This document shows positions 222 through 3,452 of a stretch of 28,535 nt of DNA, one piece after another. Position numbers and translations under genes: made by a program. Source of the stretch: a virus. The stretch lies in the IMG/VR virus record IMGVR_UViG_3300025913_000091, positions 1 to 28,535 of that record, one strand, 5' to 3'. The notes under the pieces were generated by a model. That model was not told where the DNA came from. It did not search any database and saw only the letters and a list, made by a program, of their open reading frames with translations. How positions within the stretch are numbered: position 1 is the stretch's first letter; every line of letters starts with the position of its first letter.

Positions 222-539
222 ATGGCCTTGCTTCACCAGCACGAGTGCGTCAAGATCCTGGCCGTGGGCCCAGTGCTGGCCTTCGGCCTGTCACCTGGAC
301 AGCTGTGCTGCCACGCTGACGACAAGAGCTCGTTCGGCATGGTCATCGCCGCGGGCAACGGCCAGTGCACCGTCCTGTGGTCGATCCCACCGAGAGGGAC
401 CCTCGACATGATGGTGATCAAGATGCAGGACATCAAGGCGGAATCACGCCAGCTGAGGACAGAATGGAGAACGACCGATGTCGATGACCTGATGAAGAAT
501 CCGGTCATTCGCACGCTCATCGGGTTCGAGCCAGCGTGA
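222..539 (+). CDS. small protein, VLWS-module family member A; C-terminal segment resembles the central conserved motif of gp23-type major capsid protein
   Basis: ATG preceded by AGGAGAG; high GC3; module SFGMVIAAGNGQCTVLWSIPP; tail IKAESRQLRTEW..DDL versus T4 gp23 IEAKSRQLKAAY..QDL (recalled). Confidence 0.7.
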   Translation: MALLHQHECVKILAVGPVLAFGLSPGQLCCHADDKSSFGMVIAAGNGQCTVLWSIPPRGTLDMMVIKMQDIKAESRQLRTEWRTTDVDDLMKNPVIRTLIGFEPA

Positions 540-569
540 CCCTGCGAGAGCGACAGGACCAGGCCTTCT

Positions 570-962
570 ATGCTTACGACTCAATGTGGCTCTGGCGTAT
601 ATCGAGGACCGCGTGCTGCTCCTCGCGGCGACGAAGTACTTGGACGACGCCTCGCGCCAGGCCAACTCTGGAGTTGGTCACTCAATGTCAATGAGGGCTT
701 CTACTTGTGGCAACGGGTCACCGAAGCAGGAAGAGTTGGCTTTGATGCCTCCGTAGAGGTTGTTTACCACGGTGATGTCTTCATGCTGATGGCTCTCGAC
801 GACTCAGGTCCGTACGAGATGCCCAATGACATGTTTGACGCAAATGGCGCGCTCATTCCGCGCGTCGTTCATCGATGGCACATCGTCCTGTTGAGAGATG
901 TCCTCTACTGGTTCCGTCACGATTATTTCGCCACCGCTGAACTTCTTCAGGACGTGCCGTAG
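570..962 (+). CDS. hypothetical protein, start uncertain
   Basis: 130-aa ORF with lower GC3 than neighbours. The distal two thirds look coding; the first ~100 nt score better in another frame. Stop TAG 960-962 lies inside the next -10 element. Confidence 0.45.
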   Translation: MLTTQCGSGVYRGPRAAPRGDEVLGRRLAPGQLWSWSLNVNEGFYLWQRVTEAGRVGFDASVEVVYHGDVFMLMALDDSGPYEMPNDMFDANGALIPRVVHRWHIVLLRDVLYWFRHDYFATAELLQDVP

Positions 963-965
963 GAT
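937..965 (+). promoter_or_regulatory. sigma70-like promoter, leaderless type, for CDS 972
   Basis: CTGAAC-N17-TAGGAT, then 6 nt to ATG 972. Confidence 0.55.
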
Positions 966-971
966 GGTGCT

Positions 972-1307
972 ATGCACGCCCTGTGTAGGCTGCGCCTGAG
1001 CCAGTGCAAGGACCCTCGGTGTGCTCACCAGCGACTGAGGCAAGAAAAGCGTGATGCCGAGCGCGCCCGCCGCAAGGCCCGGCTGCTGCGCAAGGAGATC
1101 CAGCGACGTTTCCCGCCTGGGACGCTGGGGGTGGTCAACACCAGGATCAACGTCGCTCCAGAGCTCTTGTCGTTCACTGTCTTCGGTTGGGGACAAACTG
1201 ACAAGGGCTGGGAGGCTCTCGTCCTGCGCAATGGCACGCTGACGACCTGGGGCTGGAGCACCTTCGAACATTGCTCCACGCTGGAGGAAGTCGTGAGGAG
1301 AGGCTGA
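972..1307 (+). CDS. hypothetical protein, paralog pair member 1 (RRFPPG..LTTWGW..CSTLEE)
   Basis: ORF with high GC3; aligns with the next ORF (KEIQRRFPPGTLGV/RELQRKFPPGAMGV; FTVFGW/FTVVGW; HCSTLEE/SCKTLEE). Confidence 0.7.
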   Translation: MHALCRLRLSQCKDPRCAHQRLRQEKRDAERARRKARLLRKEIQRRFPPGTLGVVNTRINVAPELLSFTVFGWGQTDKGWEALVLRNGTLTTWGWSTFEHCSTLEEVVRRG

Positions 1308-1308
1308 C

Positions 1309-1647
1309 GTGGGACGCGGAGCGCTTCTCCACGAGAACGACAGGCGGCGGCAGGACCGCGTCTCCCGGCGCGAACTGCAGCGCAAGTTCCCACCGGGCGC
1401 GATGGGCGTCTGGGGGACGACAATGTTCACCGTCGTCGGCTGGGCGCCCGTCGCCGCCACGCCCGCAGTGCCCTCTCGCGGTCCAGATCCGGTCCAGGGG
1501 TACTTCACCACCGCAAAAGCGGCCCAGCCCGCCAGCTGGGAGGTCGCCGTCCTGGTGGGACAGCGGCTGCTGACGTGGCAGTGGACTGTCCTCAAGTCGT
1601 GCAAGACCCTGGAGGAGTGGACGGCGGAGGAAGATGCGGTTCCTTGA
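1309..1647 (+). CDS. hypothetical protein, paralog pair member 2
   Basis: GTG start 1 nt after the previous stop; high GC3; paralogous to 972-1307. Confidence 0.7.
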   Translation: MGRGALLHENDRRRQDRVSRRELQRKFPPGAMGVWGTTMFTVVGWAPVAATPAVPSRGPDPVQGYFTTAKAAQPASWEVAVLVGQRLLTWQWTVLKSCKTLEEWTAEEDAVP

Positions 1648-1915
1648 GGAGCGAAACGTCCACCTGATGCGCGCCGGCACCGCCGACTGGCTGGGCCACG
1701 AGCCCAAGGCGGGAGACGCCGTCTACTACACCGGCGACTTCGACAGCTTCGGCATCGTCGTGGGGGCCCCCGACCTGGAGACCTCCTACGTCGTCTGGAG
1801 CCGCCCGCCCACGCCCGGGCACCGGCAGGTGCAGGCCGCCGCCGAGGAGATCAGAGACGAGATCGACGCCGACATCCTCGAGGTGCTGCGCACCCAAGAG
1901 GACGCGCGGCCGTGA
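1634..1915 (+). CDS. small protein, VLWS-module family member (C1)
   Basis: Module PKAGDAVYY..SFGIVVGAPDLETSYVVWSRPP; 14-nt overlap with the upstream ORF; high GC3. Confidence 0.7.
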   Translation: MRFLEERNVHLMRAGTADWLGHEPKAGDAVYYTGDFDSFGIVVGAPDLETSYVVWSRPPTPGHRQVQAAAEEIRDEIDADILEVLRTQEDARP

Positions 1916-2133
1916 TCCTCGCCGAGTACCGCTTCTCCGGGCAGCTGGTCCCCGTGGCGAGCCCCCGCAAGCGCCTGGAACCGGGAGACCTGGTGACCCA
2001 CAACCAGTGGCCCGACAGCCTGGGCCTGGTCGTCTGTGTCCTGCCCAGGCTGTACGGCGTCCTGTGGTCCAGGACGAACGAGACGACGCGGGCCCTCGAC
2101 GACGAGCTCGAGGCCATCAGGCGGGGGATGTGA
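1912..2133 (+). CDS. small protein, VLWS-module family member (C2)
   Basis: GTGA start/stop overlap; module LEPGDLVTH..SLGLVVCVLPRLYGVLWS. Confidence 0.65.
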   Translation: MILAEYRFSGQLVPVASPRKRLEPGDLVTHNQWPDSLGLVVCVLPRLYGVLWSRTNETTRALDDELEAIRRGM

Positions 2134-2140
2134 GCCGGCA

Positions 2141-2169
2141 TTGAACTGCAGGCGCCTGCCGTGTACTGT
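2141..2169 (+). promoter_or_regulatory. sigma70-like promoter, leaderless type, for CDS 2176
   Basis: TTGAAC-N17-TACTGT, then 6 nt to ATG 2176. Confidence 0.6.
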
Positions 2170-2175
2170 GTGGGC

Positions 2176-2574
2176 ATGAAGAACCCGTTCAGCCCATACC
2201 GCGAGCCGCCCAAGCAGGAATCCCTCCCGCCACCCGACGAGCTGCCCAACAAGATCGACAGGACGTTCTTCAACATCGAGACCAAGTTCACCTTCGCCGA
2301 TGGGCGCGCCTTCGACGTCTCCTTCGAGCACGATCGGATCCCTGAGGAGTGGGTCGATGGCGGCACCTACTACCTGGTCGAGGCGCCGCCGCACGTCTCA
2401 GGCGAGAGTCGCATGGACTCTTACGTGCAGGCAGCACATTCGAAGGGCTTCTTCACCTTCTCCAAGGACGGCAAGCTGCATGTGATGCCGTGGGACGACT
2501 TCAAGGAAGCCGTCGCCCAGACCGCCTCTTCCAAGAAGGTCAACGTCACCTGGGCCTGGAAGCGTAACAAGTAA
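2176..2574 (+). CDS. hypothetical protein
   Basis: ORF 2161-2574; ATG 2176 (MKNPFSPY..) chosen because it lies 6 nt after the -10; high GC3. Confidence 0.7.
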   Translation: MKNPFSPYREPPKQESLPPPDELPNKIDRTFFNIETKFTFADGRAFDVSFEHDRIPEEWVDGGTYYLVEAPPHVSGESRMDSYVQAAHSKGFFTFSKDGKLHVMPWDDFKEAVAQTASSKKVNVTWAWKRNK

Positions 2575-2586
2575 GGACAGGCTGAC

Positions 2587-2970
2587 GTGGCGATCCTCGA
2601 GACATACGACCGAAAGGGTGGGGGCAGGACGCTGGCTCCGGCGATGCGGACCCGGTGGAGGACCCCCAAGATGGCACCGGGCACCTTCGTGGAGGACATG
2701 CGCGAGCCCAAGGGCGACCGCGGCTTCGGCACCGTCGTCGGAATCACTGAGGACGAGATCGCTGTCCTGTGGTCCTCGCCTCCCATGGCGTTGAAGAGGC
2801 GCCTCGATCCCAGTCGCCACAACCCGCTGGCGTCCGCAGAGGACTTCACGGTCTCCATCATCACCTCGAGCCACACACCCCAGACGCCCCAGCAGGACGC
2901 CGAGGACGTCGAGTACTTCCGGAAGAACCTGTTCGCGGCCCTCAAGGTGCCCAAAGAGATGCTGCGGTGA
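2587..2970 (+). CDS. small protein, VLWS-module family member D; C-terminal ~45 aa resemble a T4 gp20-type portal segment
   Basis: GTG start; module MAPGTFVED..GFGTVVGITEDEIAVLWSSPP; tail AEDF..EDVEYFRKNLFAALKVPKEML versus T4 gp20 TEDYW..[21 protein letters not shown] (recalled). Confidence 0.7.
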   Translation: MAILETYDRKGGGRTLAPAMRTRWRTPKMAPGTFVEDMREPKGDRGFGTVVGITEDEIAVLWSSPPMALKRRLDPSRHNPLASAEDFTVSIITSSHTPQTPQQDAEDVEYFRKNLFAALKVPKEMLR

Positions 2971-3452
2971 GCTTCCTCCGCACATACGACCGAGACATCT
3001 TCCGGTCAGACAACGGCGTCCGGGAGTGGCCCATCGTCCCGCTCAGGAACGACGGCGACGAGTGGGAGGTCGACGACCGCCCAGGCCTCCCGCCCATGTG
3101 CCCAGGCGACTGGGTCGCTCACCGCTCCGACGGCGGCCGCGGCATCATTGTCGCCATCAACGATGAGCAGGCCTCAGTCGTCTGGTCCCTCCTGCCGGAG
3201 GAGCGCGATCTCTCGAAGTTCGCCTTTCCCATCGTCAGGACGACGTTCCCGCAGCTGCAGGCCCAGCAGCTCGTCTCCGTCCAACCCATGACCGCACCTG
3301 TGGGTGCCATCTTCTACATGGACTACAAGTACGGGAATGGCAGCGAAGCCCCTCCCGCTGCGGCCCCGCCCGGCCCAGGCTTCCCCAAGCCCAACCGCCG
3401 GGCCCCACGGCGGCCTGGTCGGCCCCCTCGAGGCCCTAGAAAAAACCCGTGA
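2967..3452 (+). CDS. small protein, VLWS-module family member E; carries a gp23 Gol-region-like segment and a Pro/Arg-rich tail
   Basis: GTGA overlap with the previous stop; module MCPGDWVAH..GRGIIVAINDEQASVVWSLLP; IVRTTFPQLQAQQLVSVQPMTAPVGAIFYMDYKYG versus T4 gp23 MVRRAIPNLIAFDICGVQPMNSPTGQVFALRAVYG (recalled). Confidence 0.7.
   Translation: MSFLRTYDRDIFRSDNGVREWPIVPLRNDGDEWEVDDRPGLPPMCPGDWVAHRSDGGRGIIVAINDEQASVVWSLLPEERDLSKFAFPIVRTTFPQLQAQQLVSVQPMTAPVGAIFYMDYKYGNGSEAPPAAAPPGPGFPKPNRRAPRRPGRPPRGPRKNP

Follow-up and report, generated by a model that had tools for sequence, protein, structure and literature searches.

The window analysed here is a stretch of 28,535 nucleotides (nt; 28.5 kb) of IMG/VR virus record IMGVR_UViG_3300025913_000091, with a GC content of about 66%. 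Its CheckV completeness of 8% identifies it as a fragment of a phage of about 350 kb. The one sequencing run in which the stretch was located is a rhizosphere DNA metagenome, probably its source; no RNA run was listed. Close to its 5' end lies a cassette of small genes on the + strand, five of which are open reading frames (ORFs) with a related N-terminal module and dissimilar tails. Four of these tails resemble pieces of the capsid protein (gp23) or the portal protein (gp20) of T4-type phages; tails like gp23 were assigned to classes A to D and tails like gp20 to a portal class. The five ORFs are arranged as follows (positions in amino acids, aa, and nt):

222..539, + strand: ORF1, class B; module aa 1-57 (nt 222-392), segment like the gp23 P-domain strand before the spine helix aa 65-90 (nt 414-491).
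1634..1915, + strand: ORF2, class C; module aa 1-59 (nt 1634-1810), spine-helix-like segment aa 66-88 (nt 1829-1897).
1912..2133, + strand: ORF3; module aa 1-56 (nt 1912-2079) and a conserved tail of 17-20 aa without a match.
2587..2970, + strand: ORF4, portal class; module aa 1-66 (nt 2587-2784), portal segment aa 77-126 (nt 2815-2964).
2967..3452, + strand: ORF5, class A; module aa 1-77 (nt 2967-3197), gp23 N-arm/first-strand segment aa 80-125 (nt 3204-3341).
3342..3449, + strand: conserved Pro/Arg-rich end of ORF5, after the gp23 segment.

The cassette genes are co-directional and two pairs overlap by 4 bases (1912/1915 and 2967/2970). A scan of positions 1-5000 for promoters and terminators found none, and no terminator-like site was present between cassette genes.

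Over their N-terminal 56-77 aa the five ORFs could be aligned with identities of 22-31%, and the GC content of their third codon positions (GC3) is of the coding type (0.82, 0.94, 0.95, 0.88 and 0.82 for ORF1 to ORF5). A hidden Markov model (HMM) of the module was made from 145 family members of other samples, with window-derived and near-identical sequences left out; those members had been recruited by a profile containing the five window ORFs, which makes the test independent in sequence, not in ascertainment. Out of 502 stop-to-stop frames in the window, exactly the five ORFs matched this model (E 8.7e-19 for ORF5, 2e-16 for ORF1, 1.2e-13 for ORF4, 6.8e-11 for ORF3 and 2.9e-6 for ORF2), the next frame scoring 0.48. 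An initial annotation, made from the letters of this DNA, had proposed five + strand ORFs sharing an N-terminal module at these positions, and both the outside-sequence HMM and GC3 bear it out. Its motif needs amending in two places, ORF2 having AGDAV instead of PGD and ORF1 having PGQLC; the tails are, as it had said, unrelated to one another.

The tails were compared with Pfam, with PHROGs and with local HMMs of 66 full-length T4-type capsid proteins and of four T4-type portals. ORF5 aa 84-128 matched positions 6-50 of the 376 in Pfam Gp23 (PF07068) with E 4e-11 and 43.4 bits, above the cut-off of 24.4, and positions 70-115 of the local capsid HMM with E 9e-22. For ORF1, aa 65-90 matched positions 287-312 of the capsid HMM (E 2e-3), with members of its class reaching 1e-13. 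The ORF2 tail taken singly was not significant (capsid HMM 325-347, E 0.14), but as a class this tail was aligned to the spine helix of the capsid profile with an hhalign probability of 90% and P 1.5e-6. ORF4 aa 105-126 matched positions 283-304 of the 433 in Portal_T4 (PF07230) with E 2.5e-3 and 17.1 bits, under the cut-off of 22.9, whereas the local portal HMM was matched over positions 294-349 of 610 with E 3.9e-6; this similarity is best read as homology to a fragment of a T4-type portal only. PHROGs matches agreed with Pfam for ORF5 and ORF4, and the ORF3 tail had no capsid or portal match in Pfam, PHROGs or the local HMMs. By profile comparison, four of the five window tails are thus capsid or portal pieces, ORF2 being assigned at class level only; the initial annotation had expected at least three. 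No ORF matched the Gp23 domain as a whole: the five are 73-161 aa long, and capsid HMM matches throughout the family fall in blocks of 25-60 residues.

Artefactual origins of these fusions were rejected. A six-frame Portal_T4 match at 2899-2997 extends nine codons past the TGA at 2968-2970, but the extra residues are unlike the portal consensus and represent alignment overhang, not recoding. A wrong-frame origin of the Pro/Arg-rich end of ORF5 is ruled out by its retention in the orthologues of two related contigs (L185 and L177, described below) and in distant class A members. A split intein was discarded, as the module ends in V-L-W-S without His-Asn, the tails stop without an intein half and the fold comparison returned a lone weak intein row (Z 2.8). 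An intron-split gene was likewise rejected for the ORFs.

Ten homologues of ORF5 were found, 116-220 aa long and 39-85% identical; all keep the fusion of module and gp23 segment, and their capsid-like part stops at the same 'YxDYxYG' position. No longer fused forms of ORF5 were found, a negative result of little weight. A profile of the module alone, run against 1.84 billion representatives (clusters at 50% identity), matched 408 clusters at E<=1e-3 and 51 at E<=1e-10, so that the family comprises at least 408 clusters. In the 150 members listed, the module occupies the N-terminus and protein length is 63-243 aa; three long matches to the module profile were helicase-associated-domain repeats or unrelated domains and were dismissed as false positives. 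The tail matched the capsid HMM in 102 of 169 members, in just four blocks of its 524 positions. With T4 numbering assigned by alignment to the solved T4 chains, the classes are:

Class A: capsid HMM 65-118, 61 members; T4 gp23 about 95-134, N-arm and first strand.
Class B: capsid HMM 278-325, 17 members; T4 gp23 about 254-279, charged P-domain strand, near the short acidic helix.
Class C: capsid HMM 325-350, 2 members singly and more at profile level; T4 gp23 about 295-310, spine helix.
Class D: capsid HMM 461-521, reaching the capsid C-terminus, 23 members; T4 gp23 about 442-521, P-domain sheet, P-loop and C-terminus.
Portal class: portal HMM 287-349, 11 of the 169 members; T4 gp20 about 325-381.

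In Pfam (E<=0.01), Gp23 was matched by 59 of 150 members and Portal_T4 by three. PHROGs returned head and portal families for the members, besides three weak chance matches (E 3e-3 or weaker; 'hydrolase' and an unnamed family). The module itself corresponds to no described family in Pfam or PHROGs, where only tails were matched, or in the full-text literature searched, in line with what the initial annotation had claimed. It was missing from four ordinary T4-type phages (188-267 kb) and from one huge phage of 484 kb, and the family search found it in no cultured phage. Scanning IMG/VR with a module-only alignment recovered the L003 contig only, a module scan of JGI metagenomes gave five short contigs, and with the whole class A alignment as query the matches were ordinary T4-type capsid genes. 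The family is widespread, lacks a Pfam model and has so far been overlooked by annotation. As a separate observation, 21 of the 169 members, with class A and class D tails alike (P0011, P0032, P0092, P0126, P0133 and L169:3834-4244 are examples), end in '(S/T)GS' and one or two further residues, an ending seen in none of the five window ORFs; it may be a common processing or recognition signal.

Structure prediction divides the proteins in the same way. In the AlphaFold2 model of ORF5 (alignment of 55 sequences), residues 1-77 form a six-stranded beta domain with a predicted local distance difference test score (pLDDT) of mostly 82-96, while residues 80-161 have a pLDDT of about 60 and a three-residue helical turn as their sole secondary structure. 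ORF1 (23 sequences) was modelled as a five-strand barrel with pLDDT 85-97, followed by a mostly coil tail in which the value declines from 82 to 64. In both models, barrel strand 1 (residues 3-8) is made by the conserved N-terminal 'MxxLxTY'. The small protein is thus predicted to consist of a confident beta-barrel at the N-terminus (about 57-77 aa) and a tail that is for the most part unstructured, which is what peptides on display should look like. Together with the profile matches, the models sustain the initial description of one small beta-rich module fused in frame to differing capsid or portal segments.

The barrel had no significant neighbour in fold searches (Foldseek against the PDB, a wide VIA-align search and a search of the ESM Atlas by shape). 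The best structural Z was 3.9, for the SlyD insert domain, ribosomal and SH3 barrels, with a TM-score of 0.31 or less; Foldseek gave no match at E<=1e-3, and an ESM Atlas feature search returned the family's own cluster only. With its five to six strands and its 'PGDxV...GxGxVV...VLWS' pattern, the module resembles SH3/Tudor-like barrels, and weak Pfam matches were obtained to Tudor_1_RapA, MSSS SH3 and SMN_Tudor, by one member each (E 6e-4 to 2e-3); it differs from these barrels in having no significant sequence or fold match to them. NfeD (PF01957) was matched by 0 of 150 members at E<=0.01; the cassette does adjoin an SPFH-like gene, but the barrel is N-terminal.

The cassette was found in the same order in four contigs of related jumbo phages: G006 (42 kb, GC 53%), L003 (15.8 kb), L185 (3.3 kb) and L177, which is part of JAHZTO010000113.1, a 142.5 kb NCBI contig of a metagenome-assembled genome (GC 59%). 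The GC content of the syntenic phages ranges from 53 to 67%. Orthologues of ORF1 and ORF3 lie at L177:7802-8119 and L177:9777-10004, and ORF2 has orthologues in L185 and L177. The set of classes differs among lineages. That of the window has B, C, the ORF3 type, portal and A, and L177 has two portal-class genes; the G006 lineage has B, C, D, A and module-only copies, and L003 has B, C, D and A.

Against the L185 orthologues, the ratio of nonsynonymous to synonymous substitution rates (dN/dS) was 0.28 for ORF5, 0.39 for ORF4, 0.55 for ORF2 and 0.84 for ORF3 (0.40 in the ORF3 tail). The motif is identical at 48 of 50 positions in ORF5 and at 25 of 26 in ORF4 (its last 26 residues, with one difference), while the linkers, unlike the motifs, vary and carry indels. 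Compared with 66 capsid proteins, the tails reached a best identity of about 50% (median), and the best DNA matches were 71-83% over 53-128 nt. The cassette genes are old and maintained, because the motifs are near-invariant, dN/dS is below 1 and the tails are only distantly similar to capsid genes.

These data bear directly on the possibility that the ORFs have no function and are left over from recombination of a small gene with the capsid and portal genes of the phage, which the initial annotation had offered as 'fixed debris'. Some decay is visible: ORF4 of the window lacks 10 residues, and much of the first portal motif, that its orthologue has; ORF3 is near neutral overall (the 0.84 above); and in L177 two genes stand in place of the long class B form. 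Yet the same fusions are met again in hundreds of clusters, with identities as low as about 25-40%, and the gene order is kept across the whole GC range. Motifs hardly change while linkers do, GC3 is strongly coding-like, and no near-identical DNA match turned up to any capsid gene among the 66 compared. Distant fused homologues, synteny, purifying selection on the motifs and low identity to capsid genes contradict the debris explanation, which is largely refuted already and retains almost no credibility. The split of class B was also noted for its own sake. Its long C-terminal extension ('...DG.VTVKRK...', L169:2708-3208) is a separate gene at L177:8116-8520; in the window it is missing or decayed in the interval from ORF1 to position 570. 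These differences show gene fission and loss within the cassette.

On the T4 virion, the copied segments coincide with positions of known importance. Mutations that bypass gp31 lie in the spine helix (292, 306 and 307) and in the P-domain sheet (455) (PMC9546572), within the segments copied by classes C and D. Head-length mutations at 268, 275, 285, 287, 457, 460 and 461 cluster near the quasi-threefold contacts between capsomers, which are formed by the charged strand, the short acidic helix and the P-loops (PMC9546572); positions 268, 275, 457, 460 and 461 are inside copied segments, and 285 and 287 are just past class B. The portal whisker contacts gp23 at M98, H282, M284 and M444 (PMC9546572), of which M98 and M444 are inside copied segments and H282 and M284 again just past class B. 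The copied portal segment probably packs between portal subunits. Almost every position that is invariant across the capsid family is kept in the tails, and this suggests that their partners are those of the native segments.

The family thus copies elements of the N-arm and the P-domain, but not the insertion and A domains. Taken together, classes A to D span the N-arm and P-domain of the HK97-type fold, and their tails retain what is buried or invariant in that fold, as would suit fragment complementation, in which the tails rebuild a P-domain-like unit or fill a truncated capsid protein encoded elsewhere. This arrangement is highly improbable: class D is missing in the window lineage, so that the set is incomplete in some genomes, the tail classes vary in copy number and length among genomes, and no truncated capsid gene was seen in G006, L003 or L005.

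The preferred reading, quite possible though short of probable, is that these small proteins of a soil jumbo phage act as interface mimics on prohead assembly. The barrel would be a soluble scaffold that presents the tail as a flexible peptide. The tails copy elements that in T4 make the quasi-threefold contacts between capsomers and the capsid-portal contact, and they could take up the complementary sites of capsid or portal subunits that are not yet assembled, by which prohead assembly would be capped, delayed or redirected. The target might be co-infecting T4-type competitors or the phage's own capsid, for control of timing or size. The decoy or dominant-negative peptide roles put forward in the initial annotation are plausible. 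A T4-type head is likely in this clade, because the JAHZTO010000113.1 contig of the relative carries T4-like repair and replication genes; encoded there are a T4-like 5'-3' exonuclease, endonuclease VII, a denV-type excision enzyme, a T4-type lysozyme and GIY-YIG endonucleases.

Several points weigh against a role as interface mimics. No full-length capsid or portal gene was found in the window, G006, L003 or L005, nor in the approximately 63 kb read (including 79.6-138.9 kb) of JAHZTO010000113.1, and if the phage's own capsid is of the T4 type, broad mimics would hit it as well. The four gp23 segments are the most conserved parts of gp23, and their over-representation could in part reflect detectability. 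About one third of the member tails have no assignment and some members are module-only; ORF3 and several module-only paralogues carry no recognisable mimic. Finally, the ORF1 tail has a moderately high pLDDT (about 82) and, going by the model, may pack on its own barrel.

Small proteins that disturb the head assembly of a helper phage have precedents in CpmB of the SaPI elements and Sid of P4, and CpmB reportedly imitates in part the capsid-binding end of the helper scaffold. The present proteins have no sequence relation to them. CpmB and Sid mimic the scaffold or form an external cage, whereas pieces of capsid and portal are copied here, and by a multi-gene cassette of a jumbo phage, not of a satellite.

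A different target is conceivable, since capsid and portal segments are also read by the host. The proteins could be decoys or modulators of host factors that read linear capsid or portal motifs (EF-Tu and Lit-type proteases, CapRel-type proteins, STAND/Avs sensors, chaperonins), with the peptide occupying the sensor or chaperone and the barrel blocking productive activation or tethering the complex. The class A tail of ORF5 corresponds to gp23 95-134, the most conserved gp23 region. The Gol peptide of T4, which we take to comprise about residues 93-122 of gp23, would overlap it. This 29-residue peptide, in the most conserved region of gp23, binds domains II-III of EF-Tu and triggers Lit (PMC3014915). 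Gol is a short linear stretch of the most conserved N-terminal part of gp23 and is active alone (PMC3014915), and the class A tail aligns to this part of gp23; unlike that tail, Gol is situated within the capsid protein, whereas here a separate gene fuses the segment to a barrel as one of five displayed segments. Lit and CapRel recognise the capsid protein from short motifs in its sequence, while capsid and portal are sensed by several Avs families (bioRxiv 10.64898/2026.01.04.697583). The gp31-bypass positions in the class C and D segments and the GroEL encoded in the window itself would suit a host-factor target, as would the disordered tails, which resemble unfolded or nascent capsid protein. 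Folding of the T4 capsid protein needs GroEL.

Blocking of a sensor by competition also has a parallel in the phage protein DSAD1, which is said to compete with the tail tube protein for binding. DSAD1 counters DSR2, a sensor of a phage structural protein (PMC11087589). However, DSAD1 is not derived from the tail tube protein, whereas the proteins described here have sequence homology to a structural protein. A peptide identical to the trigger should moreover activate Lit- or CapRel-type systems and not block them, and Avs sensors wrap the whole fold, so that a piece of 25-60 aa should bind poorly (bioRxiv 10.64898/2026.01.04.697583). The known linear-motif sensor concerns class A only, with none linked to B, C, D or the portal class, and no defence or anti-defence gene was recognised beside the cassette with Pfam and PHROGs. 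We therefore regard a host factor as an unlikely target, if one to be kept in view.

The genes that accompany the five ORFs were examined as well. At the cassette they are:

3..134, + strand: end of a gene like that of the major vault protein (MVP; last 43 codons), sharing about 70% identity, as judged by eye, with the C-terminus of an ORF of 518+ aa in G006.
570..962, + strand: unassigned neighbour of 130 aa, with a homologue in the same place at L177:8510-8839; GC3 is just 0.56 and coding is less certain.
972..1647, + strand: a tandem pair of paralogues (972-1307 and 1309-1647) from another small family, which have the pattern 'RRFPPG...W.W' in common.
2161..2574, + strand: neighbour of 137 aa, likely start ATG at 2176; GC3 0.86, dN/dS 0.53 against the L185 orthologue.
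3504..3860, + strand: conserved cassette-closing gene of 118 aa; GC3 0.85, homologues directly 3' of the class A gene in G006, L185 and L177.

The MVP-like gene (about 870-892 aa) lies directly upstream of the cassette in G006 (L169:125-1681), L003 (L003:4678-7341) and L177 (L177:5104-7725), the relatives that reach upstream. The L003 and L177 copies matched Pfam MVP_shoulder (SPFH-like) and, faintly, Vault_3; the C-terminal part of the protein is long and helical. If a phage made a vault- or flotillin-like cage, this would be notable in itself, and such a product may be functionally linked to the cassette. The closing gene ends the cassette in G006 (L169:5387-5779), L185 and L177 (11190-11543), the contigs that reach far enough downstream. 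The tandem pair, whose fuller pattern is 'RRFPPG...W.W...TLEEW', lies within the cassette and has homologues in the same place in G006 (L169:3264-3536) and L177 (8841-9185 and 9186-9518). Neither the pair nor the product of 2161..2574 had a match in Pfam or PHROGs.

A vault-like neighbour, a protein type that forms cages, would fit a further reading of the family, as structural accessories of the phage's own head. The proteins might be cement or decoration proteins, minor proteins at a vertex or near the portal, or part of the prohead core, held in the lattice by the capsid- or portal-like tail with the barrel on the surface or inside. Copying of lattice-contact elements would agree with this, as would a stable cassette of several members, expected for parts of one assembly. 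Capsid paralogues at special lattice positions are known, for example T4 gp24, which together with other capsid paralogues (PF07068) shares the homology to gp23; gp24 is a complete HK97-type fold, however, whereas the family proteins carry 25-60 residues of it. The cassette is moreover found amid small unassigned, metabolic and chaperonin genes and not among head or tail genes, and its membership varies: the window lineage has no class D, and no portal-class gene was seen in G006 or L003. The targeting peptide of the T4 internal proteins begins with MKTYQEF, superficially like the MSxLKTYDR start of the family. A reading of this start as a T4 capsid-targeting sequence was rejected: the N-terminus is strand 1 of the barrel and not a cleavable peptide, and no conserved L/I-x-E site follows it. 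The T4 internal proteins are comparable as small phage proteins sent to the prohead by a short peptide (PMC9958956), but the candidate targeting element here would be C-terminal and has no consistent protease site. A structural role in the phage's own head is accordingly rated improbable.

Beyond the cassette, the window encodes GroEL, an AAA ATPase, a phosphoribosyl pyrophosphate (PRPP) synthetase, a second phosphoribosyltransferase, an SPFH protein, a VWA protein, an Fpg-type glycosylase, a phosphatase and a GIY-YIG homing endonuclease. Directly 3' of the cassette, two adjacent Cys-rich and Gly/Ser-rich ORFs on the + strand (3882-4778 and 4499-5257) begin like signal peptides and are very high in GC3 (0.93 in the first ORF); the pair is kept in L185, and the first had no family match. 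The GIY-YIG gene (8652-9611, + strand; SegE-like) sits in a dip of GC content, 0.56-0.62 against about 0.67 elsewhere in the window, which suggests a recently acquired mobile gene. The chaperonin (15789-17459, - strand) is of the GroEL type, with E 4e-67 to Cpn60_TCP1 and E 4e-143 to the PHROG 'chaperonin groEL'; it is 70% identical to the GroEL of G006 and about 40% identical to those of many marine viral contigs. The PRPP synthetase, which has a weak PHROG match to nicotinamide phosphoribosyltransferase, and the second phosphoribosyltransferase are adjacent at 20002-21865 (- strand) and form a module for salvage of nucleotides or NAD, as is typical of large phages. Within JAHZTO010000113.1, the region 79.6-138.9 kb (L186-L189) encodes an eIF-1a/IF1-like protein, peptide deformylase, Thg1, a Ser/Thr kinase, phosphoenolpyruvate-utilising and pyruvate-kinase-like proteins and two DUF4419 proteins, besides the T4-like repair genes, an auxiliary set unusual for a phage.

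A broader form of the interface-mimic proposal can be given only tentatively, and we consider it rather unlikely as it stands: that a clade of soil jumbo phages carries a heritable 'interface-mimic' toolkit, with one inter-subunit contact element on each mini-protein, that poisons or reprogrammes prohead assembly as a weapon against co-infecting T4-type phages or as a built-in regulator of timing and size of its own very large head. Were the host sensors or EF-Tu the target instead, the family would be a new class of anti-defence proteins working by homologous mimicry. If the proteins do act as interface mimics, they would be the first natural virus-encoded display family in which one scaffold domain carries different short pieces of two key assembly proteins. 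Their natural peptides would then point out which contact elements of the T4-type capsid and portal are functionally critical, phages might prove to compete in a way that is new, and the family would offer a route to how very large capsids control nucleation, size and portal incorporation.

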